This document shows, one piece after another, positions 31,900 to 53,995 of a DNA stretch of 64,000 bases; within the stretch, counting starts at the first letter, position 1; the number at the start of each line of letters is the position of its first letter. Position numbers and translations under genes: made by a program. Source of the DNA: an uncultured Thermoleophilia bacterium (GTDB taxonomy: Bacteria > Actinomycetota > Thermoleophilia > UBA2241); NCBI GenBank assembly GCA_963715985.1, contig CAVQSP010000013.1, positions 128,001-192,000 on the forward strand. The letters run 5' to 3'. Under the pieces are notes generated by a model that saw nothing but the letters and a program-made list of their open reading frames with translations, was not told the DNA's origin and searched no databases.

Positions 31900-32174
31900 G
31901 GAGGATCCCGGCCATCGTGCTCGTCGCCCTCATCAGGGCGTACCAGTACGCCGTCTCGCCGCTGCTCGGGCCGCGCTGCAGGTACTACCCGTCGTGCTCC
32001 AACTACGCCATCGGCGCGCTCCGCGAGCACGGCGCCTTCCGCGGCGCGGGCCTGGCCGCCTGGCGCATCCTGCGCTGCAACCCGTTCAGCAACGGCGGCT
32101 ACGACCCGGTGCCACCGCGGCATCGCGGCTGCGAGCACGACCACCCCGAGAGCAACGTGAGCGCCCGTGTATAA
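31896..32174 (+). CDS. yidD: Membrane protein insertion efficiency factor
   Basis: [34 protein letters not shown]. Confidence 0.95.
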
Positions 32175-33158
32175 CCTGCCCATCCTCAGCCAGCTCATCC
32201 TGCTGCTGCACTGGATCCTCGTCACCATCAACGACTGGCTGGCGTCGCTCGGGCTCGGGCCGGAGTGGACGTGGGGCCTCGCCATCATCGGTCTCACCGT
32301 GATCGTGCGCCTCATCCTCTTCCCGCTCACCTGGAAGCAGTTCAGCTCGGCGCAGTCCATGCAGGCCATCCAGCCGAAGATCAAGGAACTGCAGAAGAAG
32401 TACAAGAACGATCGCGGCAAGCTCCAGCAGGAGACGATGAAGCTCTACCAGGAGCACCGGGTCAACCCGTTCGCCTCCTGCCTGCCGTTGCTGCTGCAGC
32501 TGCCGGTGTTCATCGGGCTGTACGCGGCCATCAAGGGCCTCGGGCCCGCTGGAGCGCGCCGCAGTACCAGGCCTCGGTCGAGGCGCTCAACCAGGCCTCG
32601 TTCCTGTGGATCCCGCACCTCGGCCTGCCGGACCCGTACTACGTCCTGCTCGTCCTCTACGTGGTGTCGCAGCTCATCTCCACCGAGCTCATGCTGGCCA
32701 CGCAGACCGACAAGTCGCAGCGCATGATCATGCGGGCCATGCCCATCATCTTCGTGTTCTTCCTGTTCAGGTTCCCGGCCGGTCTCTTCGTGTACTGGGT
32801 CACCACCAACATCTGGACGATCGGCCAGCAGCTCCTCATCCGCCGCATGATGAAGCCCCCGGACCTCGAGGCGCTGGCCGCCAAGCCGGCCAAGCGCAGC
32901 CGCTTCATGGAGGCGCTCACGGCGGCTCAGGGCGACCGCATGCAGACGCGCGAGGACCTCATCGCCAAGCAGAGGGCCGAGCGCGCACAGAAGGAGTCAG
33001 GCTCCGGAGGCGACGCCAAGAGCGGCGCCAAACCGGCGGCCCAGTCAGGCGCCAAGAAGAGCAGCGGCGCACGCAAGCCGCCTCCGGGCAAGGGCAAGCG
33101 CAAGCCGAGCCCTCAGCAGGGGCAGGGGACAGACAAGAGCGGTCCGGCGGACGGCTGA
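32167..33158 (+). CDS. yidC: YidC/Oxa1 membrane insertase; frameshift near 32550
   Basis: [48 protein letters not shown]. Confidence 0.92.
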
Positions 33159-38024: not shown

Positions 38025-40092
38025 TCACACGAGATCGCGCGGCACGACGCGCCGCCACTCTCGTGTGAAGACCACCTGCTCGTCGTCCTCTTCGCCCTCG
38101 CTCACCGTGACCACGTCGGCGACCACGAAGCTCCCGGCGTCGCACGTCATCTGCCCCCGGGTGACGATGTGGAAACGGCCCTGGGCGCCGCGCCGCAGCA
38201 CGCTCTCGAGCTCCGTCCGCACCGAGGCCGACAGCGGATCGCCCTCGCGGATCCGGTACGTCACCGTGTTCCACTCCTCGCTCTCCCAGCCGTCGGGCAG
38301 GACGACGTTGCCGCCGTCCACGTAGTGATAGGTCCAGGTGAGGCTGTCGTCGGTGAGGTCGCGCGCGTAGCTGCGGTCGCCGGGGCCACCGCCGAACACC
38401 TGCTCTCCGAGCCCCGGCGGCACCACCGGCGCGGCGAACTCCGGCAGCTCCTCGTCCTCGGGGCGCGGCGGGCGCACGGGGAGCTCGAGGGTGGACTCCG
38501 CGCAGTCCAGCGTCAGCACGACGGCCTCCGGCGACGGCCACGCGAGCGGCCAGTACGTGGGGGAGAGCGCGACGCGCAGGCGGTGGCCGGCGGGAAAGGC
38601 GTGGGCGGTGGCGTCGAGCGGCACGCACACCGTGTACTCGTGACCGGGTGCGAGCGCCTGCGGGTGCTCGTGCCCGTCACGGTGCGTGAGGTTGAAGACC
38701 TGCTGGGCCACGAGCGTCGAGACGCCGTCCGGGGCCACGTCGGCGAGACGCACCGCCACGAGGGCGAGGGGCCTGTCGGCGGCCACCCTCAGCGTGAGCA
38801 CGGGGTGGCCGAGGATCTCGAGCCGGCCGGCAAGCGGAGCTGAGGTGAAGCACAGCGACTGGCCCTCAGCCGCCCTCTGGTCGGGGGCCTCGTCGCTGGG
38901 CTGGCCCTCGGCACACCAGGCGCCGGCGTCGGCGCCGCACAGCTGCGAGCCGGCGATGGTCAGGCGGCCGCCGTCCGCGCCGTGCGCGGCCGCCGCCTCA
39001 GCGTCCGGCTGCCGGGCGCCCGGCCCGCGCAGCACGCCGTCGGCGTCGAGGCGCCAAGTCCGCGGCGCCAGACGCTGGGACGGCCACGTCTCTTCCGCCA
39101 CCCAGCGGCCGGGCACGTCGCCCACCTGTCCGCTCGGCCGCCTCCAGTCCTGCATCCAGACTCTCAGCATGGGCTCGTCCATCACGCCCGTGTCGCGGCC
39201 CTTGAGCCAGTGGTCCCACCAGCGCAGCGCCTCCTGCAGGAAGCCGATGGCGGGGCCCGGCGCGGCGATGTGCGGGAACGCGTGGCCCCACGGTCCGATG
39301 AGCCCCTTGCGCGGCCCCGGTAGGCCCCTGAGCAGGCGCAGGACCGCGTTGGTGTAGCCGTCCGCCCAGCCGCCGACCGCGTACACCGGCACCTCGATGG
39401 CCCCGTAGTCCTCGCACACCGAGCCATGCTTCCAGTAGGCGTCGCGGCGCTGGTGGGCCAGCCACGTGTGCGCCCAGGGCCGGTTCGCCTCCAGGCGTTG
39501 CGACCAGAGCTCTCGCCACTCCGCGCCGACCGCCGCCTCGTGCGGCGGCTGGCACTGCCAGTGCAGCATGCACGAGCTCCAGTGCAGCATGTCGGTGCCC
39601 ATGACGCAGCCGCCCTTGTAGTGCACGTCGTCCGCGTACCGGTCGTCGGTGCTCATGAGCGTGATGATCGCCTTGAGCGCCGGCGGCCGGCGGGCGGCCA
39701 CCTGGAGGCTGTTGAAGCCGCCCCACGAGATACCCGTCATGCCCACCGTCGCCGGAGCACCAGGGCTGCGCCGCCAGCCAGGCGATGACCTCGAGGAGGT
39801 CCTCCTGCTCCTGCGGCTCGTACTCGTCGCCGAGGATGCCGTCCGACTCGCCGCTGCCGCGCAGGTCGAGGCGCACGCAGGCGTACCCATGGGCGGCCCA
39901 GTAGGGGTGGATCTGCACGTCGCGCGTAGCCATGCCGTCGCTCAGGCGGTAGGGCACGGCCTCCAGGATCGCGGGCACCGGGTCGGCCTCCGCGTCGTCG
40001 GGCAGCCAGATGCGGGCCGCCAGGCGCGTACCGTCGCTGAGCGGCACCCAGGCGTAGTCGATGGTGCGGATCGTGCGGTCCTCATGCGTCAT
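38025..40092 (-). CDS. CocE/NonD family hydrolase (peptidase S15); frameshift near 39755
   Basis: LSDGTRLAARIWLP, DLRGSGESDG, GISWGGFN, GPWGH, PepX-like C-terminal domain. Confidence 0.9.
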
Positions 40093-40519: not shown

Positions 40520-40623
40520 GCCTCGCGCCCCGGCCGCCGAGGCTGTGATAGGGTGAGGAGGCGCGGCGGCCGGAAGAGCCGCCGCGCCCGTCAACCGCTT
40601 CAGACCCCAGGAGACTCACCGCC

Positions 40624-43394
40624 ATGTGCGGCATCTTCGGTTTCGCCGGCGCGCCCGACCGGCACCTCCTCGGGCGCATGGCCGCCGCGCTCGTGCATCG
40701 CGGCCCGGACGACGCCGGCGCCTTCGAGTCCGCGCCGGTCAGCCTCGGCCACCGGCGCCTCAGCATCATCGACCGCGAGGGCGGTCACCAGCCCATCGCC
40801 AACGAGGACGAGAGCGTCTGGCTCGTCTACAACGGCGAGGTCTACAACTTCCGCGAGCTGCGCGCCGAGCTCGAGGGCGCCGGCCACGTGTTCCGCACGC
40901 ACTGCGACAGCGAGGTCATCGTCCACGCCTACGAGGAGTGGGGGCCGTCATGCGCCGCGCGCTTCAACGGCATGTGGGCCTTCGCCGTGGCCGACCTGCG
41001 CGGCGCCGCCGCGGACGGCAGCGGCGGCAAGCTGGTGCTGAACCGCGACCACTTCGGCATCAAGCCGCTGTACTACGCGCGCTCGCCGCGGAGCGGTCGC
41101 CTGCTGTTCGCCAGCGAGATCAAGGGCCTGCTGCAGGACCCCGAGCTGGTCCCCCAGCCGGACGAGCAGATGGTGTTCGAGTACCTGCAGCACGGCTTCC
41201 ACGACCACCGCGCGGAGACCTTCTTCCGCGGCGTGTACCACGTGCCGGCGGCGACGTGGATCGAGGTGCCGCTGGGCGCCGCCGGCGCAGGGCAACGGCT
41301 CCGGCGCCGCGCCCGGCCCGCTCACGGCGCCGCTGCCGAGCACCCCCTTCTGGACGCCGAAGCTCAGCACCGGCGCCGGCAGCGACCCCGCCGACTTCCG
41401 GCGCCGCTTCCGCGAGAGCGTCGAGCGGCGCCTCGTCTCGGAGGTGCCGGTGGGCTCCTGCCTCTCCGGCGGCCTCGACTCCACCACCATCGTGAGTTTC
41501 ATGAGCGAGCTGCTCCAGGCGGACGTGCCGGACGCGGCGTCGCTGCGCGGCCAGCTCAAGACGTTCAGCGCGGTCTTCGACGGCGACCCCATCGACGAGC
41601 GCGCCTTCATCGAGATCGCCGTCGAGAGCACCGGCGCCGACACCACCTACACCAACCCCACCTCGCACGAGTTCGTGGGCGAGCTGCGCGACTTCATCTG
41701 GCACCAGGAGGAGCCCATCGTGAGCACCGGGCCGTACGCCCAGTGGTGCGTGATGCGCTCCGCCCGCGAGCAGGTCACGGTGCTGCTCGACGGCCAGGGC
41801 GGCGACGAGCTCATCGCCGGCTACGTGCCGTACCAGCTCGTCTACCTGCGCCAGCTGCGGCGCCAGCGCCGCTGGGCCGAGCTGCGGCACGAGGGCGAGA
41901 GGTCGCGGGACGTACTGTGGCCGCTGGCCAGGCGGAGGCTGAAGCAGCGGCGCAAGCAGCTGCCGACGCGCAAGCTCCTGCGGCAGTCCTTCCTCGCGCG
42001 GACCACCGACCCCGGCTACGGGCGCTCCCAGGACGACCTCAAGGAGCGCCTCCTCCAGGACTTGCTCACGTACAGCCTGCCGTGCCTGCTGCGCTACGAG
42101 GACCGCAACTCCATGGCGTTCAGCATCGAGAGCCGCGTGCCGTACCTCGACCAGGAGCTCGTCGACCACATCCTCAGCCTGCCCGACGACGCCATCATCA
42201 GGGACGGGTGGAGCCGCTGGATCCTGCGCGCCGCACTCAAGGGCACGCTGCCCGAGAGGATCCGTCTGCGCCGCTGGAAGGTCGGCTTCACGACGCCGGA
42301 GATGCGCTGGATCAAGGCGCGCCGGGCGGCGTTCACGAGCCTGTACCAGTCGCCGTCCTTCCAGTCGCGCCCGTACTGGGACGGCGCCGCGGTGGTGAGC
42401 GCGTTCCGCGCCTGCTGCCGCGGCGAGGTGGAGGAGAGCATGTTCTTCTGGCGCGCCGCCAACATCGAGCTGTGGCTGCGCGAGTTCGTCGACCGCAGCG
42501 TGGTGCTCGAGGACGCGGACGTGGAGGCCGCGCTCACGGCGCCGGCCGAGGTGGGGCCGCGCCGGCGCGGCAGCATCGCGGCGGCCGGCGACGCGCTCGT
42601 GCCGGGCATTCTTGGGGCGGCCGCGGGCCCGCAGGGCCCCGCCGCGGCCGCCGAGGCCGGGCGCCTCCTCGCCGCACACGCGCCCAACGAGGAGAAGCAC
42701 CTGTTCGCCACGGTCGGCGGCGTCGTGTACGCGCGCCTGCCGCTCAAGACCGACCTGGTCGGGCGCGGCGACGACCTGGGTGAGCTGCTCCGCCGCCAGG
42801 TCGCCGCGCACGTGCGGCCCGGCGACATCGTCGTCATGGCCGAGAAGCCCATCGCCGCCAGCCAGGGCCGCAGCTACGCTCTCGACGAGATCCACCCCAC
42901 GAGGCTCGCCAAGGTACTCAGCAGGGCCGTCACCAAGACCCCGCACGGCATCGGACTCGGCATCCCCGAGACGATGCAGCTCGCCATCGACGAGGCGGGG
43001 GCGCCGCGCATCGTGGCCGCCGCGGCCGTCTCCGCGGCCGGCAAGGTGGTCGGCAAGCGCGGCCTCTTCTACAAGGTGGCCGGCGCCAACGTGGAGGCCA
43101 TCGACGGCCCCACCTGGAACACGCTGCCGCCGCACAACACGCATGCCAAGCTGGGCCCGGCCGACCCGGACGGCGTGGCCGCCCGCCTCTCGGGGGTGCT
43201 CGCGGACGCCGCCGGCGGCCGCGTGGACTTCGTCGTCATCGACGCCAACGACCTCACGGCCACCGTCCTCGGCGCCTCCCCGGGCGCCGACCGCTCGCTG
43301 GCCGCGACCCTCATGCGCGACAACCCGCTCGGCCAGGGCCACGAGCAGACGCCAGTCTGTGTCCTGCGCCCGCTCGGCCCGCTGCCCGGTCTGA
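40624..43394 (+). CDS. asnB: Asparagine synthase-like (AsnB) amidotransferase fused to a C-terminal F420-0:gamma-glutamyl ligase (CofE)-like domain; frameshift near 41290; stop probably TGA 43392-43394
   Basis: Ntn MCGIFG, HRGPD, NGEVYN, PP-loop SGGLDS, GQGGDE, ESRVPYLD; then GDIVVMAEK..A.SQGR, AIDG, DANDL, DNPLGQGHEQTP in the same frame. Confidence 0.85.
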
Positions 43395-43574
43395 CCTTCA
43401 TCCGCCCTGGCTGCACGCACTGCGGGTCACGCCCCCGCGAGCCGCCACCCCCGGCGCGGATCGAATCACCCGAATGGGGGGAGGCAGGCTTGCAGCCCGC
43501 CGCCGACACTGGAGTTGTTTCAGGCGAAGACCCGAGGGACAAGACCCATGTGACGGACGAATGGAGGGGCATTC

Positions 43575-44777
43575 GTGGAAGCCGTCTCGAACATGACGGC
43601 GGCGGAGGATGCGTTGCGGCAAGCACGGACGTGCCCCGCGGTAGTCCCGCTGCCGCCAGCCTCCTGGCCGGGCGACCCGAGCGCCGCGTCGCCGGCGACC
43701 TGCCGGCCGCCGAATCTGGACGGCGTGTCTGCGTGCGCGCTTTCCGCGAGCAGCCTGATCGCCGCAGACGCCTTCGGACTCGCCAGGCTTCGTGACGCGA
43801 TCCGCACGGCTCGCTCGGTCGACGATCTGGCCAAGAAGGTCGTCGCCATGCCGGCGCTGTTCGTCGAGCTGGTAGATGCAGGTCTTCAGGCGCCGACCCT
43901 CACACGGGTGTACACGGCCTTGGGCGACGCGGTGACCTCACGCCTGATCGAGTTGAACATCACGCATCGCGGCACTCCTCCAGTGGCCTTCGCGTGGCTC
44001 GCGTTCGGCAGCGCCGGGCGCCACGAACTCTCCCTGTTCTCCGACCAGGACAACGGTCTCGCGTACGAGGACACCCGCGACCCCTCCGTGGACGAGTACT
44101 TCTTGCAGCTCGCCATCGATGTCAACGATGGTCTGAGCCGCTGCGGCTTTCCGCTCGATCCTCACGGCGTGCTGGCCACTGGCCGAGAGTGGCGCATGCA
44201 GGCGTCCGACTGGGTCGCAGTGTTCGCCGATTGCCTGAGATGCTGGGACGGCGAACGGCTTCTTCGGGCGGCCATCTGCTTCGACGTCCGCCAGGTGGCC
44301 GGCGACCTCTGGATAGTCCCCCGGCTGGACGCCGTCATCAGTCGGGCGCCCGGCTACTCGCGCTTCCTCAGCGGATTGGCCGAACTGGGCGCTGAGATCT
44401 CCTCCCCTCTCCGCTTTCCTCGCCGACTGAAGGGTCCCGTCGACCTCAAGTGGCGAGGCCTGCTCGTCGTGCAGAACCTCGCGCGCTACTACGCCTGCGC
44501 GGCTGGGCTGACGCCGTCGTCAACCGTCGATCGTCTGGCCGCGGTCGGGGAGGCGGGGGCCAAAGGCAGCGATGTGGCCGAGGCGCTGCGCGAGGCATAC
44601 GTCACCATGGCCGGCCTGCAGTCGCGCCACCAGGCCGAGATCCTCCGTCGGGGCGGCTCGCCGGACGAGCCGCTGGATACCGCGAGGCTCGACCCGGAGA
44701 GCAGGGCGAGCCTGCAGCAGGCCCTGCGTCAGCTCGCATCCGTGCAGGAGCGGCTCCCGCGACGAGTCGCGCTGTGA
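43575..44777 (+). CDS. DUF294 putative nucleotidyltransferase plus substrate-binding domain
   Basis: FAWLAFGSAGRHELSLFSDQDNGL, GFPLDPHGVLA, FDVRQVAGD, DLKWRGL. Confidence 0.8.
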   Translation: MEAVSNMTAAEDALRQARTCPAVVPLPPASWPGDPSAASPATCRPPNLDGVSACALSASSLIAADAFGLARLRDAIRTARSVDDLAKKVVAMPALFVELVDAGLQAPTLTRVYTALGDAVTSRLIELNITHRGTPPVAFAWLAFGSAGRHELSLFSDQDNGLAYEDTRDPSVDEYFLQLAIDVNDGLSRCGFPLDPHGVLATGREWRMQASDWVAVFADCLRCWDGERLLRAAICFDVRQVAGDLWIVPRLDAVISRAPGYSRFLSGLAELGAEISSPLRFPRRLKGPVDLKWRGLLVVQNLARYYACAAGLTPSSTVDRLAAVGEAGAKGSDVAEALREAYVTMAGLQSRHQAEILRRGGSPDEPLDTARLDPESRASLQQALRQLASVQERLPRRVAL

Positions 44778-44945: not shown

Positions 44946-45890
44946 GTGAGCATCGTCGAGGTCCAGGAGTTGCGAAAGCAGTACGACCCGCCCAAGGGTG
45001 TGCTGGCCGTCGACGGTGTCAGCTTCGACATCGCCGAGGGCGAGATCTTCAGCCTCCTCGGCCCCAACGGGGCGGGCAAGAGCACGACCATCTCGATGCT
45101 CTCGTGCCTTCTGCACCCGAGCGGCGGCGACGCGCGCGTGGCCGGGAACTCAGTGGTCAGCGACGCCCAGGCGGTCAAAGAGGTCATCGGCGTCGTCCCG
45201 CAGGACATCGCCCTGTACCCGGACATGAGCGCCCGCGAGAACCTCGTGTTCTGGGGCAGGATGTACGGCCTGTCGGGCGCCGCGTTGCAGACCAGGGTCG
45301 ACGAGGTGCTGGAGCTCATCACGCTGGTCGACCGCCAGAAGGACCGCGTGGAGAAGTACTCCGGGGGCATGAAGCGCCGCGTCAACATCGGCGTCGCTCT
45401 GCTGCACAAGCCCCGCGTGCTGTATCTGGACGAACCCACGGTGGGGATCGACCCGCAGAGCCGGCGGTCGATCCTCGACGGGATCCTCGCACTGCGCGAC
45501 CAGGGGATGACGATCCTCTACACCACGCACTACATGGCCGAGGCGCAGGAGCTCAGCGACCGCGTCGGCATCGTGGACCACGGCAAGATGATCGCCGTCG
45601 GCACCAACGACGAGCTCGTCAAGATCGTCGGCGAGGCGGCTCACATCGAGCTGCGCACCGACCACCGCCTGGACGCCATGGTGGAGCGCTGGGCAAAGGT
45701 CGAGGGCGTGAACAACGCGACGGTGGACGAGGACCACGCCGTGCTCCTCGCCCACGACGCCGACCAGGTCCTGCCGCGGCTCTTCGAGGCGGCGGCCGCG
45801 GACGGCACGCGCATCACCGAGGTCAACGTCACCGAGCCCAACCTCGAGATGGTCTTCCTGCATCTCACCGGCCGGGCCCTCAGAGAATGA
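44946..45890 (+). CDS. ABC exporter ATP-binding protein
   Basis: GPNGAGKST, YSGGMKRR, LDEPTVGID, TTH. Confidence 0.92.
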   Translation: MSIVEVQELRKQYDPPKGVLAVDGVSFDIAEGEIFSLLGPNGAGKSTTISMLSCLLHPSGGDARVAGNSVVSDAQAVKEVIGVVPQDIALYPDMSARENLVFWGRMYGLSGAALQTRVDEVLELITLVDRQKDRVEKYSGGMKRRVNIGVALLHKPRVLYLDEPTVGIDPQSRRSILDGILALRDQGMTILYTTHYMAEAQELSDRVGIVDHGKMIAVGTNDELVKIVGEAAHIELRTDHRLDAMVERWAKVEGVNNATVDEDHAVLLAHDADQVLPRLFEAAAADGTRITEVNVTEPNLEMVFLHLTGRALRE

Positions 45891-45960
45891 CCGCCGTAGG
45901 CGGATCATCGTCGGGTGCGCGGCACGTGCACTCGACTGTAAGGGACCACCCCAGCCCGCC

Positions 45961-47220
45961 GTGAGCCGCGTCCTCGCCATCGCGCTCAAAGACCTGCGCA
46001 GCACGTACCGCAACGTGCCCGCGCTGGCGATGATGCTGGCTGCCCCGCTGGCGCTCTCGGCGCTGCTGGGCTTCGCCTTCGGCGGGGCCGGCAACGGGTT
46101 CTCCGTGTCCGCCACCAAAGTGGCCGTCGTGAACCTCGACCGCCCGCCGGCCGGCTCCGGTCAGCAGGCCGCCGCGGGCGCGACGATCGCGGGCATCCTC
46201 GGCAGCGACGGCCTCAAGGACATCCTCACGGTGAGCAAGATGTCGTCCGCCGAGGCGGCCCGCAAGAGCGTGGACGACGGCAAGGACGTTGTGGCCGTCA
46301 TCATCCCGCCGGCACTCAGCGAGGTGTTGTACGGCACCAGCGAGACGGCGAAGGCGGTCATCGAGCTGTATCAGAACCCGACGCAGGGCATCGGCGACGC
46401 CATCACGCAGAGCGTCGTCGGCCAGTCCCTGCTGCTGTTCAACGGCGCCCGCGCCGCGGCGCTGGCGGCACAGGGGGTGGCCACCGCCAACGGCGACGCC
46501 CAGGGGGCGGGCGCGGCGGCGCAGAAGGCCGCGGCCGCCTACGTGCACGCGCAGGAGAGCGGGTCCGGCGGGTTGACCGTGGCGGTGCGCCCGCCCGAGC
46601 TCGCCGGCGGCAAGGCGTCCAAGGACATCGGCGTCACCGGCCTCGTGCTGGCGGGGATGATGGTCTTCTTCATGTTCTTCGGCGCCTCCAACGTGGCCAG
46701 GACCATCCTCACGGAGGAGCGCGACGGCACACTGCCGCGCCTCTTCACCACGCCGTCCTCGCGGCAGGTCATCCTGGGCGGCAAGTTCATGTCCACGTTC
46801 CTCACGGTGCTGGCACAGGCGGTCATCATCATCATCGCCGGACGCCTGATCTTCGGCATCGACTGGGGGGCGCTGGACGCCGTGGCGCTGCTCATCCTCG
46901 TGGCCGCTGCGGTGGCCGCCAGCCTGGGACTGCTGGTGATCTCCGTCGTGCGCACGCCGGCCCAGGCGGGTGCCATCGGGGCCGGCGTCTACCTGGTGCT
47001 GGCGCTCGTGGGCGGCAACTTCACGGGCACCGCCCAGACCGGCACCACCTACGCCACCATCCAGCGGTTCTCGCCCAACGGCTGGCTCCTGATCGGGTGG
47101 AACGAGACCATGCGAGGAGGAGGCATCGGCGACATCCTGCTCCCGCTGCTGATCCCGCTCGCGTTCGCCGTGGTGTTCTTCGCCATCGCGGTGCTCAGGT
47201 TCCGGAGGCGGTTCGCGTGA
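45961..47220 (+). CDS. ABC-2 permease with extracytoplasmic loop
   Basis: 1+5 TM topology; EERDGTLPRLFTTP. Confidence 0.87.
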   Translation: MSRVLAIALKDLRSTYRNVPALAMMLAAPLALSALLGFAFGGAGNGFSVSATKVAVVNLDRPPAGSGQQAAAGATIAGILGSDGLKDILTVSKMSSAEAARKSVDDGKDVVAVIIPPALSEVLYGTSETAKAVIELYQNPTQGIGDAITQSVVGQSLLLFNGARAAALAAQGVATANGDAQGAGAAAQKAAAAYVHAQESGSGGLTVAVRPPELAGGKASKDIGVTGLVLAGMMVFFMFFGASNVARTILTEERDGTLPRLFTTPSSRQVILGGKFMSTFLTVLAQAVIIIIAGRLIFGIDWGALDAVALLILVAAAVAASLGLLVISVVRTPAQAGAIGAGVYLVLALVGGNFTGTAQTGTTYATIQRFSPNGWLLIGWNETMRGGGIGDILLPLLIPLAFAVVFFAIAVLRFRRRFA

Positions 47221-47227
47221 GGCCGGC

Positions 47228-48433
47228 GTGAGTCGCATCTGGATACTCGCCCGCAAGGACTTCCTCGAGACGCGCCGGGACCGCCTGGCGTTCCTGTTCA
47301 TCTTCGTGATGCCGATTGCGTTCACCGCCTTCTTCGGCCTGATGTTCGGGGGCGGCAGCGACCGTCTGCCGCTCGCCGTGTGGAGCGGCGATGCCGGGCC
47401 TGCCGCCAAGCAGCTGCTGAACGCCGTGGAGAGCTCGGACGTGGTCGTCGTGCGCCGCATGACGCGCATGGACGCCGAGCAGGCGGTGGCCGACAGCAAA
47501 GCGGCGGCGGCGCTCGAGATCCCGGCGGGGTTCTCCGACGCCGTGAGCGCCGGCAAGCCGGCCACTGTGACCGTGGTCGGCGTGACCGGCTCCACCGGCG
47601 CCCAGACGGCGCAGACGGAGATCACGGCGCTCGCCGGTCAGGTGGTGGCCGGCGAGCAGGCGGCGCAGGCGGCCGTGGACGCCGCCGGCTCAAGCGCCCT
47701 TCAGCAGGGTCAGGCGAGCGCGGCCCAGCTGCGCGAGGCCGCGCTCCTCATGGCGCGCCCGCTCGCGTCACAGGCGCTCGCCCATCCGGCCGCCACGATC
47801 CGCGTGGTGCAGGCCGGTGCGGCCGCCGGTCAGGTGCCCTCGGGCTTCGTGCTCAGCTCGCCCGGCATGCTCATCAACTTCATCCTCTTCAGCCTGATGA
47901 CGGCCGGCATCGCCCTCGTCCAGGAGCGCAAGAACTTCACGCTGGAGCGCCTCATGACGACGCACGTGCGACGCTGGGAGCTCATCGCCGGCAAGGTCGC
48001 GGGCATGTTCGTCCTGACCTTCGTCCAGCAGATCATCCTCATCGCCGTCGGCCAGCTCCTCTTCGGGGTGGACTACCTGCGTGACCCCGCGGCACTGCTG
48101 CTCATGATGATCGCCCTGTCGTGTGTGGCCTCGACGCTGGGACTGCTGCTGGCCGCCCTGCTCAAGTCGGAGCAGGCGCTGGTCGCCGCCGTGGTGCTCA
48201 CCTCCATGGCCGTGGCGGCCCTCTCCGGCGCCTGGTTCCCGCTGGAGATCACCGGCTCGGCCTTCCAGTTCGTCGGGCACCTGCTGCCCACGTCGTGGAT
48301 CCTGGACGGCATGCGCGGCATCATCATGCGCGGCTTCGGGGTGGCCGACGTGCTGCCCGCTTTCGGCTTCGCCCTGGCCTGGACGGTGGTGCTGTTCGCG
48401 GTCGCCGTCTGGCGCTTCCGTCTCACCGATTGA
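47228..48433 (+). CDS. ABC-2 permease with extracytoplasmic loop
   Basis: ERKNFTLERL, LSGAWFPLE. Confidence 0.87.
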   Translation: MSRIWILARKDFLETRRDRLAFLFIFVMPIAFTAFFGLMFGGGSDRLPLAVWSGDAGPAAKQLLNAVESSDVVVVRRMTRMDAEQAVADSKAAAALEIPAGFSDAVSAGKPATVTVVGVTGSTGAQTAQTEITALAGQVVAGEQAAQAAVDAAGSSALQQGQASAAQLREAALLMARPLASQALAHPAATIRVVQAGAAAGQVPSGFVLSSPGMLINFILFSLMTAGIALVQERKNFTLERLMTTHVRRWELIAGKVAGMFVLTFVQQIILIAVGQLLFGVDYLRDPAALLLMMIALSCVASTLGLLLAALLKSEQALVAAVVLTSMAVAALSGAWFPLEITGSAFQFVGHLLPTSWILDGMRGIIMRGFGVADVLPAFGFALAWTVVLFAVAVWRFRLTD

Positions 48434-50219: not shown

Positions 50220-51944
50220 TCATCCGAAGCCGTAGACGTCACGCGCCTGTGCCGGTGTGATGTAGCCGTCGCGCAGGTCGGCGCGCACGCTGCTCCCGGC
50301 GCGCCGCCGCGGGTCGCCCCAACCGCCGCCGCCGCTCGAGCGCAGCGCGAAGGTGTCGCCGCGCCGCAGCGGCAGGTCCACGCCCTTGCCCGGGGATCTC
50401 GCGCTCCTGCGGACCGCCGGGATCGAGGAGCACGGCGGCCCGCGCCCCGGGGAGTCCGCCTTGGGCGCCCCAGGGGCGCGTCTCCTCCAGCGTCTGGTCG
50501 GCATAGCGCCCGGAGACGGACGCCTCCTCGGCGAGCAGCTGGTACCAGCGTTCGAGTGCCAGCCCGCCGCGGTGTTCGCCGGCGCCGCCCGAGTCGGGCA
50601 CGAGCTCAGTGCGCAGAACGCGCAGCGGCGCCTCCACTTCCAGCGCCTCGGCGGACATCATGGCGCAATTGCCCATGTGCGTGTCGACGGCCGAGATGCC
50701 GTCGCCGCCGACGTGGCCACCCATGCCGCCGCCGACGATGTCGGCGGCCATGTAGGGCTCCCCGCTCTCGTCGTCGAGACCGGTGACGTTGAAGGTAGGG
50801 AAGGAGACCGAGCAGCCGGCGGCGGCGCGCTCGGGGCAGGCCTCGCGCAGCGCCTGCAGCAGCAGGTCCGCGACCTTCTGCTCCGTGAGGTGACGCACGC
50901 TCACCGGCGCCGGGAAGACCGGGTTGAGCAGGCAGCCCTCGGGGACGTGCGTGGTGATGGGCCGGTAGGCGCCCTCGTTCTGCGGTACGTCCGGAGCCGA
51001 TCATGCAGCGCACGGCGTACCAGACCGACGAGATGGTGGACGCCAGCGGGCAGTTGAGGCTGCCCCGCGTCTGCGCAGCCGTGCCCGTGAAGTCGGCGTA
51101 CACGTCGCTGGCGTCCGACCGTGACGGTCGACCTCCAGGCGCAGAGGGCCGTCGCCATACAGGTCGGGGTCCATGAGCCCGACGGCGTGGTAGGTGCCGG
51201 GGCGCATCCGCTCGAGGCCGTCGCGTACCACGGCCTCGGTGGACTCCCACATCCCGGCCATGTGGATCTCGAGGGCGTCGGCGCCGTAACGCTCGCAGAT
51301 CTCGGTGAAGCGCCGCTCGCCTGTGCGGCAGGCTGCGATCTGGGCACGGATGTCGCCGAGCGTCTCCTTGGGCACACGGACGTTGGCGGCGATGATGTCG
51401 AACAGCGCCTCGTTGGGCTCGCCGCCGCGGTAGAGCTTGACGATGGGCAGCAGCAGACCCTCCTGCCAGACTTCCACGGCGTCCGCGGCTTCGCTGGCGG
51501 CCGTCTTGCCGCCCACGTCCATGTGGTGGGCGTTCGTCGCGGCGAAGCCCATGAGCCGGCTCCGCCGCGTACATGGGCATCGCGATATGATGTCGTTGGC
51601 GTGGGTGGCGCCGTGATAGGGGTGGTTGGCGATGAAGACGTCATCCGGCTCGACGCCGCCGACCCCGAACTTGGCGAGGAGGCGCGCCATGACCGACGAC
51701 ATGACGCCGAGCTGGGCGGGCAGGTTCTCCGCCTGGCTGATGAGCTCGCCCTGCGGTCCGAAGATGGCGCACGAGTAGTCGAGCATGTCGTAGATGATGG
51801 CCGAGTAGGCGCTGCGGCGCAGGGCGCGGCTCATCTCCTCGGCCGCGGAGACCAGGCTGCTCGCCACCACCTCGCGGGTGACCGGGTCCGCAGTACCGCG
51901 GCCCGGGCAGCGGCGCCGGCGTTGCCCTGTGGCAGGGCGCTCAC
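50220..51944 (-). CDS. Hydantoinase B / 5-oxoprolinase family subunit; several frameshifts
   Basis: RRSAYSAII...DYSCA, NHPYHGATH, HHMDVGG, QEGL, GGGMGG, DSGGAGEHRGG, GGGGWGDP. Confidence 0.85.
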
Positions 51945-53995
51945 AGTGCCACCTCTACGACGATCGTGCCGTTCTCGTTCGACGCGGGCGAGGTCGTGCG
52001 GCGGGATCCAGACCGTGGTGTCTAGCTGCTCCACGACGAGCGGGCCGGGGTACGACTCCCCGGCCCTCAGGCGGCCGCGGTCGAGCACCGGCGTGTCCAG
52101 CCAACCCTCGCCGTGCACGTACACGAGCCGCTCCCTGTCCCGTTCGTGGCGCGCGGCGATGCGCTCCTGCCAGGCGCCGCGCGGGACACTGCCGATGCCC
52201 TCCACGCGCAGGTTGACGAGCTGCGTGGGCTCGTCGGCGGAGTGGTGACCGTAGACGCGCTCGTGGGTCTCGTGGAAGCGCGCCACGAGGCGGCCGACGG
52301 CTGCGGCGCCGTCGCTCTCGTCGGCGAGCGGTTCGTCGCAAGGGATGGTCAGCTCGTAGGCCTGCCCGAGAGTAGCGCATGTCGACAGAGCGCCTGAAGG
52401 CGGTGGCCGACGCCGGCACGCCGTCTTCGAGGAGCCGGCGCTCGGCCTCGTCGCGGAGGCTCGCGAAGAGGCGCTCCGCCTCCCGAAGTCGGCGCGGGCG
52501 GTGGGCACGATGAACGAGGCGAGCATGGGATGGCGGATGTCGGCCATGAGCAGCCCCACGGCGGAAGTGATGCCAGGATGGGGCGGCACGATCGACCCGC
52601 GGGATGCTCGCCTCGCGGGCGACGGCGCAGGCGTGCATGGGCCCGGCGCCGCCGAAGGCCACGAGGGCGAAGTCGCGCGGGTCGAGGCCCTTCTGCACGG
52701 TGATCACGCGGATAGCGCCGCGCATGTTGGTGTTGGCCACCGCGATGATGCCGGCCGCGGCCTCCTCGAGCGGGAGGCCGAGCGGTCGCGCGACCTCGCG
52801 CTCCACGGCCTCGCGGGCAGCGGCGGCGTCGAGGCCGAGGTCGCGGCCGAGCACGGTCTCACCGCCAAGCACGCCGACCACGAGGTCGGCGTCCGAGACG
52901 GTGGGCAGCACACCGCCCTTGCCGTAGCACGCCGGTCCGGGCTCGGCGCCGGCGCTCTGCGGCCCGACCTTGAGACTGCCGCCGGCGTCCACGCGGGCGA
53001 TGCTGCCGCCGCCGGCGCCGATGGTCTCGATGTCCACCATGGGCGTGCGCAGCGGGTAGCCTTCGACCTCCTTGAGATGGGCACGGCCGGGCTCCCCGTT
53101 CACCACCGTGGCGACGTCGCAGCTGGTGCCGCCCATGTCGAAGGTGACCAGGTCGCGGTATCCGGCGGAGAGCCCGAAGAAGGTGCCGCCGACGACACCG
53201 CCCACGGGGCCGGAGAGGATCGTATTGACCGGCCGCTCCCGCGTGGTGGCCGCGGTCATGAGGCCGCCGGACGACTGCATCACGTGCAGCCCGGCGGCCA
53301 CACCGCGCTCGTCCAGGCGCTCCTCCAAGCGCCCGATGTAGCTGAACACCGGGCGGATGACGTAGGCGTTGACCGCCGTGGTGCTCATGCGCCAGTACTC
53401 CCGGTACTCCGGGCTGATGACAGACGAGAGCGAGACCATGGCCTCCGGCATGATCTCGGCCGCCAGCTCTGCCAGGCGGCGTTCGTGGGACGGGTTCATG
53501 AAGGAGAACAGCAGGCAGACGGCGAGGGTCTCGACGCCCTCGCCGGCGAGCGCGGTGAGCACGCGGCGCGCCTCGTCCTCGTCGAGCGGGGTGACAACGC
53601 TGCCGTCCGCGGCCACGCGCTCCGTGACCTCCAGGCACAGGCGGCGGGGAACCAGGGCCGGCCGGCGGACCGGGACGACGTTGTAGAGCTCGCGTCGCTG
53701 CTGGGTGCCGATCTCGAGCACGTCGCGGAACCCCCGCGTGGTGATGAGCGCCGTGCGTGCGCCCTTGCCCTCGAGCAGCGCGTTGGTGGCCACGGTCGTG
53801 CCGTGCACGAGGAAGTCGACGTCGGCGCCCGCGCGGCCGGCCTTGTCCACGACCTTCATCACGCCGTCGGTGAAGGCGATGGACTGATCGCTGACTGGTG
53901 GACGGCAGCTTGTCGACCCAGACCCGGCCGCTGCCGGCGTCGAGCAGGCACACGTCGGTGAACGTACCGCCGACGTCGACGCCAAGCTTCAGCAT
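51941..53995 (-). CDS. Hydantoinase A / 5-oxoprolinase family subunit (ATP-binding); several frameshifts
   Basis: [52 protein letters not shown]. Confidence 0.88.

Follow-up and report, generated by a model that had tools for sequence, protein, structure and literature searches.

Background

To our knowledge, MurT-GatD of Gram-positive bacteria is the only enzyme known to amidate the D-isoglutamate of lipid II; it consists of MurT, a carboxylate-activating ligase of the Mur-ligase fold with a MurT_C domain, and GatD, a glutaminase with a class I triad (GATase_3). According to the accessible part of PMC5871853, the amidation of D-isoglutamate is required for efficient cross-linking and affects the sensitivity of Gram-positive bacteria to antibiotics and lysozyme. 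In this work we have analyzed a stretch of 64,000 nucleotides from an uncultured Thermoleophilia bacterium (contig CAVQSP010000013.1, positions 128,001 to 192,000; the whole stretch is referred to as the window) and in it a gene at positions 40624 to 43394 that joins an AsnB-type amidotransferase to a CofE-like domain. The AsnB + CofE-like unit, either fused or encoded by adjacent genes, is a candidate for a so far unrecognised cell-wall modification enzyme, that is for a known kind of system (amidation or ligation of peptidoglycan precursors) built from other folds.

Pairs of enzymes that ligate and then amidate are represented by D-aspartate ligase with AsnH in lactococci and enterococci and by Ngg with AsnO, which produce N-acetylglutaminylglutamine amide. 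In these pairs the amino acid that the ligase attaches is then amidated by an AsnB-type enzyme, a feature in which the unit studied here may resemble them; their ligases, however, are of the ATP-grasp type and not of the CofE fold, and are not fused to the amidotransferase. LtsA, AsnB of Bacillus and Listeria, and AsnB1 can be likened to the present gene by architecture, since they share the two-domain AsnB organization, Cys2 and the SGGLDS motif, and a stem-peptide substrate is proposed here as well; they are not known to have a CofE-like partner, and their substrate is meso-diaminopimelate (mDAP). For CofE, the F420-0:gamma-glutamyl ligase, PMC10861534 places the active site in the dimer interface, where GTP and two Mn2+ ions are used and glutamate has its own pocket; F92, G153-C155 and R234 of Archaeoglobus CofE are among the residues named there as binding the F420 chromophore and L-glutamate.

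An earlier note on this DNA, made from its letters alone, had presented the locus as one open reading frame (ORF) encoding a fusion in which the ligase adds an acidic amino acid to a cell-wall precursor, a glycan or a cofactor and the AsnB domain amidates it, and had suggested that this could provide a function for orphan CofE-like proteins.

Alternation of the AsnB + CofE-like unit with MurT-GatD

A new finding of this work is that MurT-GatD and the AsnB + CofE-like unit alternate with each other. MurT_C (PF08353) was used as the marker of MurT, with control hits in Lactococcus lactis and Corynebacterium glutamicum, and the p values given below are hypergeometric tails, which ignore relatedness and so overstate the case. 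In a sample of 201 Thermoleophilia genomes, 29 of which carry the CofE-like domain linked to AsnB (referred to as carriers), MurT_C was present in 134; it was found in 1/29 carriers versus 133/172 non-carriers (p = 9e-15). The sole MurT-positive carrier, G050, gave a weak match of 53.7 bits, the usual score being ~100-130. At this locus (L172, G050:C4:1296000-1302500) a remnant of MurT_C lies in a 252-aa frame beside a GATase_3 gene, and a Mur ligase middle domain was absent from the two upstream frames tested; possibly a murT-gatD pair is decaying here in a fusion-bearing genome. MurT_C gave 0 matches in the source genome (G000), and the MurT-GatD domains (Mur_ligase_M, MurT_C and GATase_3) are not found in the fusion gene either.

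The same pattern was seen within families. In family f1, that of the window, MurT is present in 11/14 non-carriers and the remaining three belong to the carrier genus; in G196, a MurT-negative f1 non-carrier, the AsnB part lies at a contig end. In family f6 all non-carriers have MurT (17/17) and no carrier does (0/7). G056, the only genome of genus g2 without the fusion, encodes Mur_ligase_M and MurT_C, and a GATase_3 gene comes next. In its distribution the AsnB half goes together with the CofE-like half: when the synthetase domain of the window was the query, matches of at least 49% identity were confined to carriers, and the MurT-positive genera of f1 and f6 gave no match at E<=1e-30. At the MurT loci fetched from the class gatD adjoins murT in 14/14 cases.

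Beyond the Thermoleophilia, the alternation was found in two further groups. In a class of small genomes of the candidate phyla radiation (CPR), examined around locus L075, MurT is present in 55/121 genomes (54/120 without G578) and the CofE-like gene in 8, with an overlap of 0, that is MurT in 0/8 carriers versus 55/113 others (p = 0.006). In an order of Clostridia, where the CofE-like gene stands alone, it was found in 43/151 genomes and MurT in 35/151, the overlap being 0 versus 10 expected (MurT in 0/43 carriers and in 35/108 others; p = 1e-6). In addition, MurT_C was absent from 10/10 carriers that represent ten further loci.

Replacement at the same chromosomal slot

About 18 kb of sequence was fetched around all 8 carriers of the CPR class and around 13 MurT genes. 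In L075 the genes lie on one strand in the order PolX - LemA - M48 peptidase - AsnB - CofE-like - gatC - gatA - gatB. The block [PolX]-LemA-M48-AsnB-CofE-like-[gatC]-gatA-[gatB] was found in 8/8 carriers, three with a fused and five with a split unit; in one it is interrupted by contig ends and in one it has no GatC match. At 3/13 MurT loci the same slot is occupied by the other system, in the Pfam-confirmed order PolX - LemA - M48 - MurT - GatD - gatC - gatA - gatB, and at the other 10 murT-gatD is located elsewhere. The three same-slot loci vary by a ClpB insertion in one and by a 460-aa ORF without a Pfam match between murT and gatD in another (L153:9466-10848). In a maximum-likelihood tree built from five flanking proteins, the three MurT genomes form a grade between two carrier clades (Shimodaira-Hasegawa-like approximate likelihood-ratio test 100 and 100), and therefore the occupant of the slot has changed at least twice, whatever the root.

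A cell-wall context was also found for the split pair of genus g24 (family f6), which is located between yggT and divIVA within the murB-ftsQAZ-sepF division and cell-wall cluster at 4/4 loci.

Proposed function and its alternatives

The exclusion of MurT in three groups, the exchange of occupants at one slot and the placement in the g24 cluster are accounted for most simply by one common need, the masking of a free stem-peptide carboxylate. The cell-wall proposal of the earlier note gains support from the alternation with MurT-GatD, the same-slot replacement and the g24 dcw/divIVA cluster. On balance we favour a cell-wall, MurT-replacing role of the AsnB + CofE-like unit, and with the same modest confidence it may be described as a ligase/amidotransferase for a carboxylate of the peptidoglycan stem peptide, active in the place of MurT-GatD. 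The part acting on the substrate of MurT would be the CofE-like ligase, since its stand-alone gene also excludes MurT, often in genomes without AsnB. The target would most likely be the alpha-carboxyl of D-isoglutamate.

In the proposed mechanism the unit would act on a precursor, for example lipid II, and would modify, and so neutralise, a free carboxylate of its stem peptide. The CofE-like domain would activate a carboxylate to the acyl phosphate at the expense of a nucleoside triphosphate, as in CofE, and would then join to it an amine, be it ammonia or an amino acid. The AsnB half would hydrolyse glutamine and convert a carboxylate to the amide through an acyl-adenylate, and this carboxylate could belong either to the newly added residue (ligation followed by amidation) or to the stem peptide itself. 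Which substrate and which nucleophile are used, and how the steps follow one another, are as we infer them, and the specific scheme of two steps, ligation and then amidation, is put forward tentatively, as clearly less probable than the role in the wall.

Like MurT-GatD, the unit combines in two parts a carboxylate-activating ligase with a glutaminase, shows a mutually exclusive distribution with it and occupies the identical slot in one CPR class. The two systems are not homologous, however: the glutaminase is of the N-terminal nucleophile (Ntn) type, and two activating domains (PP-loop and CofE-fold) are present as opposed to one. The relation that we propose is thus one of functional analogy and not of family membership.

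The walls of 'group B' in Microbacteriaceae have a cross-bridge linked to D-Glu, and in this family the stand-alone gene is found in cultured Microbacterium, Leucobacter and Salinibacterium, in the order rpoD - CofE-like - ATP-grasp ligase (ATPgrasp_ST-type), with parE further on (L064, L073 and others); we count this neighbourhood of an ATP-grasp ligase among the points in favour of the role in the wall. A possible, rather speculative extension is that ligases of this sister family of the CofE fold substitute the D-Glu alpha-carboxyl, the stand-alone forms by adding an amino acid, including the first residue of the 'group B' cross-bridge in Microbacteriaceae, and that the AsnB-linked forms amidate the added residue to give a D-Glu-alpha-(aminoacyl amide). 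Such a product replacing the D-isoglutamine made by MurT-GatD would explain both the mutual exclusion and the exchange at the slot.

Several observations weigh against the role in the wall. Two carboxylate-activating domains exceed the needs of a simple analogue of MurT-GatD. In Thermoleophilia 0/14 murT-gatD loci share flanks with the fusion loci. In family f1 the genes next to the fusion (the rnpA-yidC region, endonuclease IV and an ABC-2 transporter) are not cell-wall genes. The contexts of the stand-alone genes of Clostridia and of the fused genes of Acidimicrobiia are heterogeneous and have no consistent theme, and the adjacency to gatCAB could indicate metabolism of amide amino acids instead. 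Saccharimonadia, with 12 carriers, 13 MurT genomes, an overlap of 0 versus 1.0 expected and 126/151 genomes with neither, and Acidimicrobiia, with 2 fused carriers, both MurT-negative, at a base rate of 50/151, are too weak to count. Family f4 mostly has neither system (carriers 0/35, MurT 3/35). In the subfamily that joins tetratricopeptide (TPR) repeats to the CofE-like domain MurT is present in 2/3 genomes, the two of Acidimicrobiia. The co-occurrence tests ignore phylogeny and kin are not independent, so that Thermoleophilia may represent perhaps only two independent events. Searches of papers available without subscription turned up neither a report of the fusion nor one of a substitute for MurT.

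A rather unlikely alternative is that the AsnB half is an mDAP amidotransferase of the LtsA/AsnB1 type, with the CofE-like domain being accessory or having an unrelated second activity, and that the alternation with MurT reflects lineages which amidate different positions of the stem peptide. PMC5485061 and PMC8554201 report that mDAP is amidated by AsnB paralogs of Bacillus and Listeria; the small genomes G002 and G014 have no full-length Asn_synthase match besides the fusion, in which the glutaminase and PP-loop motifs are intact. This alternative is at odds with the Clostridia, where the stand-alone CofE-like gene excludes MurT equally strongly (0/43), and with the stand-alone carriers tested, 4/5 of which have no AsnB homolog; from these data it is the CofE-like part that seems to alternate with MurT. 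The Asp, Asn and Thr-Pro positions of this part, invariant across phyla, also suggest catalysis and not an accessory role.

The unit could also produce a soluble small molecule (an amidated gamma-glutamyl or dipeptide osmolyte, or a cofactor tail) or serve amide-amino-acid or tRNA-linked metabolism, having no role in the wall. Its position directly upstream of gatCAB in 8/8 CPR carriers would fit such a function, as would the ABC-2 exporter that follows the fusion in 11/13 f1 loci, the amino-acid permeases found near the loci of metagenome-assembled genomes (MAGs) labelled 'Bacillota' with 68% GC, and the presence of TIGR03104, below its cut-off, in the list of NCBIfam matches. The cell-wall pair murT-gatD, however, takes the same position upstream of gatCAB, so this adjacency is not specific, and a soluble product leaves unexplained both the alternation with MurT in three groups and the dcw placement in g24. 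We regard this explanation as unlikely, and continue to favour the MurT-replacing role.

If that role is true, a non-homologous substitute for MurT-GatD would close a gap in cell-wall biochemistry, in bacteria as widely spread as Thermoleophilia, Acidimicrobiia, many Clostridia, Microbacteriaceae and candidate-phyla bacteria. Hundreds of proteins labelled 'asparagine synthase' or 'F420 ligase' would gain a function and the rare CofE fold a second use, and the way may be opened to ligases, still to be identified, by which the D-Glu alpha-carboxyl is decorated. A MurT substitute can be tested for directly, since cultured Microbacterium strains carry the stand-alone gene.

Architectures and distribution of the family

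Of 8000 candidates scored in a word-indexed protein search, 574 proteins matched at E<=0.001. The combination GATase + Asn_synthase + F420_ligase was found in 110 of the 120 homologs listed, which are ~860-1040 aa long and are annotated in the source merely as 'asparagine synthase'. The CofE-like domain is present in 30/201 genomes of the class. In the genus of the window (19/22 genomes, G000 counted) and in genus g2 (3/4) it is part of open frames of ~860-1040 aa. In genus g24 (7/7) it occupies a separate frame of 238-312 aa, ~50% identical, and at 4/4 fetched loci an AsnB gene for 657-689 aa lies immediately upstream on the same strand; split but adjacent pairs also occur in 5/8 CPR carriers. 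The three-domain architecture is conserved, which agrees with the fusion described before. For L075, a complex prediction with the two proteins of the split unit scored 0.00 and carries no weight either way.

When each species was represented by one genome, a pattern scan revealed at least 572 loci, of which 80 were kept for comparison. They come from Thermoleophilia, Acidimicrobiia, the 68%-GC 'Bacillota' MAGs, many Clostridia, Microbacterium, Leucobacter and Salinibacterium, and also from Saccharibacteria, Parcubacteria, Kaiserbacteria, WOR-3, Armatimonadota and Thermotogota; close relatives aside, they show 44-58% identity to the CofE-like domain of the window. At these 80 loci the domain is fused to AsnB in Thermoleophilia, Acidimicrobiia and the 'Bacillota' MAGs, adjacent to AsnB in L075 and otherwise a stand-alone protein of ~230-290 aa. 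The fetched flanks of the stand-alone loci among the 80 contained no AsnB gene, and 4/5 of the stand-alone carriers tested had no AsnB homolog at E<=1e-10. A library of representatives yielded 838 cluster representatives at E<=0.001. The suggestion that the fusion gives a function to orphan CofE-like proteins is no more than a hypothesis, as most relatives of the domain stand alone.

One genome of Thermoleophilia and two of Acidimicrobiia encode a third architecture of ~500-550 aa, in which a C-terminal CofE-like domain is preceded by TPR repeats (L023:9009-10532, L168:638-2287 and L169:588-2105). A 41%-identical match in G159, and likewise those in G211 and G217, were considered as FbiB and rejected, as Pfam recognised in them TPR repeats and a CofE-like domain.

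The AsnB half

By its architecture the first part of the protein is an AsnB-family amidotransferase. It begins with MCGIFGF, the Cys nucleophile is invariant in 16/16 aligned sequences, the SGGLDS PP-loop is present and invariant, and the Asn_synthase domain is full-length, with many invariant residues in the alignment of the family. With TIGR01536, the equivalog model of asparagine synthase, the two halves were scored singly due to a frame break and reached 224.2 and 191.6 bits (cut-off 267.1). The model below its cut-off mentioned above, TIGR03104, describes N-acetylglutaminylglutamine amidotransferase.

The CofE-like domain and its independence of F420

The C-terminal domain has the fold of CofE and of FbiB's N-terminal domain (2PHN, 2G9I, 7ULD). 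An AlphaFold2 model was obtained from an alignment of 39 sequences with a predicted local distance difference test score (pLDDT) of 94.6, and the only significant Foldseek matches in the PDB were the Archaeoglobus CofE structures 2PHN, 7ULD and 2G9I (E 8e-12 to 6e-10, template modelling (TM) scores 0.59-0.63, 20% identity). The best of them was 2PHN (E 7.9e-12, TM 0.63), and the next match, an unrelated one, had an E of 0.5. A sequence profile search of the PDB gave a weak match to 2PHN (E 7e-7) in two short stretches, too short for mapping of the catalytic residues. PF01996 was matched above its cut-off, at positions 2-150 of 218 only; the equivalog models of CofE were failed, with TIGR01916 at 28.9-32.1 bits (cut-off 180.65) and NF009809 at 23.3-26.1 (cut-off 274). 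The motifs quoted before as typical of the CofE family are present. In this sister family a few positions, occupied by Asp, Asn, Gly and Thr-Pro, are invariant across phyla, which suggests that catalysis has been retained. Nucleotide-dependent formation of an amide bond at a dimer interface is probably shared with CofE.

The AsnB + CofE-like unit is independent of F420. The present gene is the sole PF01996 match in the source genome, and neither CofD (TIGR01819) nor CofC (PF01983) had a match in this MAG, which is 88.8% complete; no other F420 gene was found in the window. This is what the earlier note had stated for the window, and it extends to the whole genome. CofD is present in 89/201 genomes of the class, in 0/36 of family f1 and in 0/24 of f6, and thus in 0/29 AsnB-linked carriers. 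The domain could in principle glutamylate F420-0, which would make the fusion a part of F420 biosynthesis, and the score above the PF01996 gathering threshold together with the CofE fold might be quoted for it. Given the missing CofC and CofD of the source genome, the missing CofD of the carriers, the equivalog scores far under the cut-offs, and the low identity to Archaeoglobus CofE at a TM of ~0.6, we attach practically no credence to it.

Two CofH-like radical SAM genes lie 2 kb apart in the source genome (G000:C11:505299-509342). They were considered as F420 genes and rejected, as they scored 362.7 and 357.2 bits against a cut-off of 374.1; they are probably not F420 genes, and we presume that they encode menaquinone (futalosine) enzymes.

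Organization of the gene and the two frame breaks

The locus most likely encodes one tri-domain enzyme of ~920 aa, predicted to consist of an Ntn glutaminase, a PP-loop adenylating synthetase and a CofE-fold ligase, and the copy in the window is most likely broken by two indels alone. The parts of the gene and the adjacent features are listed in Table 1.

Table 1 Features of the fusion gene and of other genes in the window
Feature	Coordinates	Strand	Evidence and remarks
N-terminal class II (Ntn) glutaminase, MCGIFGF start, Cys2 nucleophile, frame +1	40624..41281	+	Pfam GATase_7 4.8e-45, GATase_6 1.2e-38 (40624-41292); tblastn with P0008 residues 1-217; frame plot of G+C at the third codon position
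First frame break (+1), at the poorly conserved glutaminase/synthetase junction	41270..41295	+	Three-frame translation; tblastn frames +1/+2; contigs of X2 and X3 one base shorter at 41282
Asparagine-synthase-type PP-loop synthetase, SGGLDS at ~41465-41482, frame +2	41294..42482	+	Pfam Asn_synthase PF00733 4.9e-72, 244 bits, profile 2-354 of 354; 87% identity to P0008
Ala/Gly/Pro-rich linker, open in frame +2	42483..42679	+	Translation; variable among homologs
CofE-fold (F420_ligase-like) domain, ~236 aa	42680..43387	+	PF01996 1.7e-13, 51 bits versus cut-off 25, profile 2-150 of 218; AlphaFold2 pLDDT 94.6; PDB matches to CofE only
Second frame break and likely true stop TGA 43392-43394 (third frame)	43388..43394	+	Sequence; contigs of X1 and X2 one base shorter at 43390; homologs end 3 aa past GPLP; no coding signal in 43321-43921
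YidC, truncated	32161-32724	+	Profile positions 1-89 of 163 matched only
S15/CocE-type peptidase	38025 to ~40200	-	Frame-shifted near 39900
Putative nucleotidyltransferase (DUF294 + DUF294_C), between the fusion and the ABC genes	43575-44777	+	No counterpart matched in 12 further f1 loci
ABC ATPase and two ABC-2 permease genes, after the fusion	44946-48433	+	Order kept in 11/13 f1 loci
Hydantoinase B/oxoprolinase gene	50242-51954	-	Split by the in-frame TGA 51001-51003

The fusion of an AsnB-type amidotransferase to a CofE-like domain, as read earlier, is borne out by the Pfam matches and the fold, and so is the passage of the synthetase through the Ala/Gly linker into a domain of about 235 aa without a stop or shift. 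The region 40624-43394 is, however, not one ORF as had been assumed. Past about residue 217 the translation of frame +1 is rich in Arg and Pro, as out-of-frame GC-rich DNA reads (the G+C content of the window is ~71%), and frame +2 is open from 41285 on, holds Asn_synthase and F420_ligase in one frame, overruns 43394 and ends at 43795. When the intact 918-aa homolog P0008 was used in tblastn, its residues 218-915 aligned in frame +2 without gaps. The homologs, 915-940 aa long and intact, terminate three residues beyond LGPLP. A plot of G+C by codon position followed frame +1 to ~41221 and frame +2 in 41281-43321.

Contigs from the short reads of four public wetland metagenome runs were aligned to 40600-43800; being 92-99% like the window they represent related strains, not provably the same genome. 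One base fewer was found in runs X2 and X3 at the first break and in X1 and X2 at the second, and between 41283 and 43389 these contigs supported no further indels. When both bases are deleted, a single ORF runs from 40624 to TGA 43392-43394 and its product has the C-terminus GPLPG. The source genome is a MAG of 22 contigs, and other genes of the window are broken too, as in an indel-prone assembly, so that both breaks are most likely assembly indels; very probably the gene is not a pseudogene. Were both breaks real, the gene would be a true pseudogene in the source genome: the window sequence as given carries both, and the contigs without the extra bases stem from related strains. This is quite improbable in view of at least three other broken genes in the window, of breaks of just one base each, of 2.7 kb without stops or additional shifts at 87% identity to an intact homolog, and of a genome without MurT as a fallback.

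Neighbouring genes

The ABC ATPase and ABC-2 permease genes lie on the strand of the fusion, and since their order is kept in most f1 loci they may form one operon with it. In 2/3 Acidimicrobiia loci the fusion has directly upstream of it, and on its own strand, a gene combining HAD and acyltransferase (PlsC-like) domains (L053:6484-8148 and L063:6335-8044).

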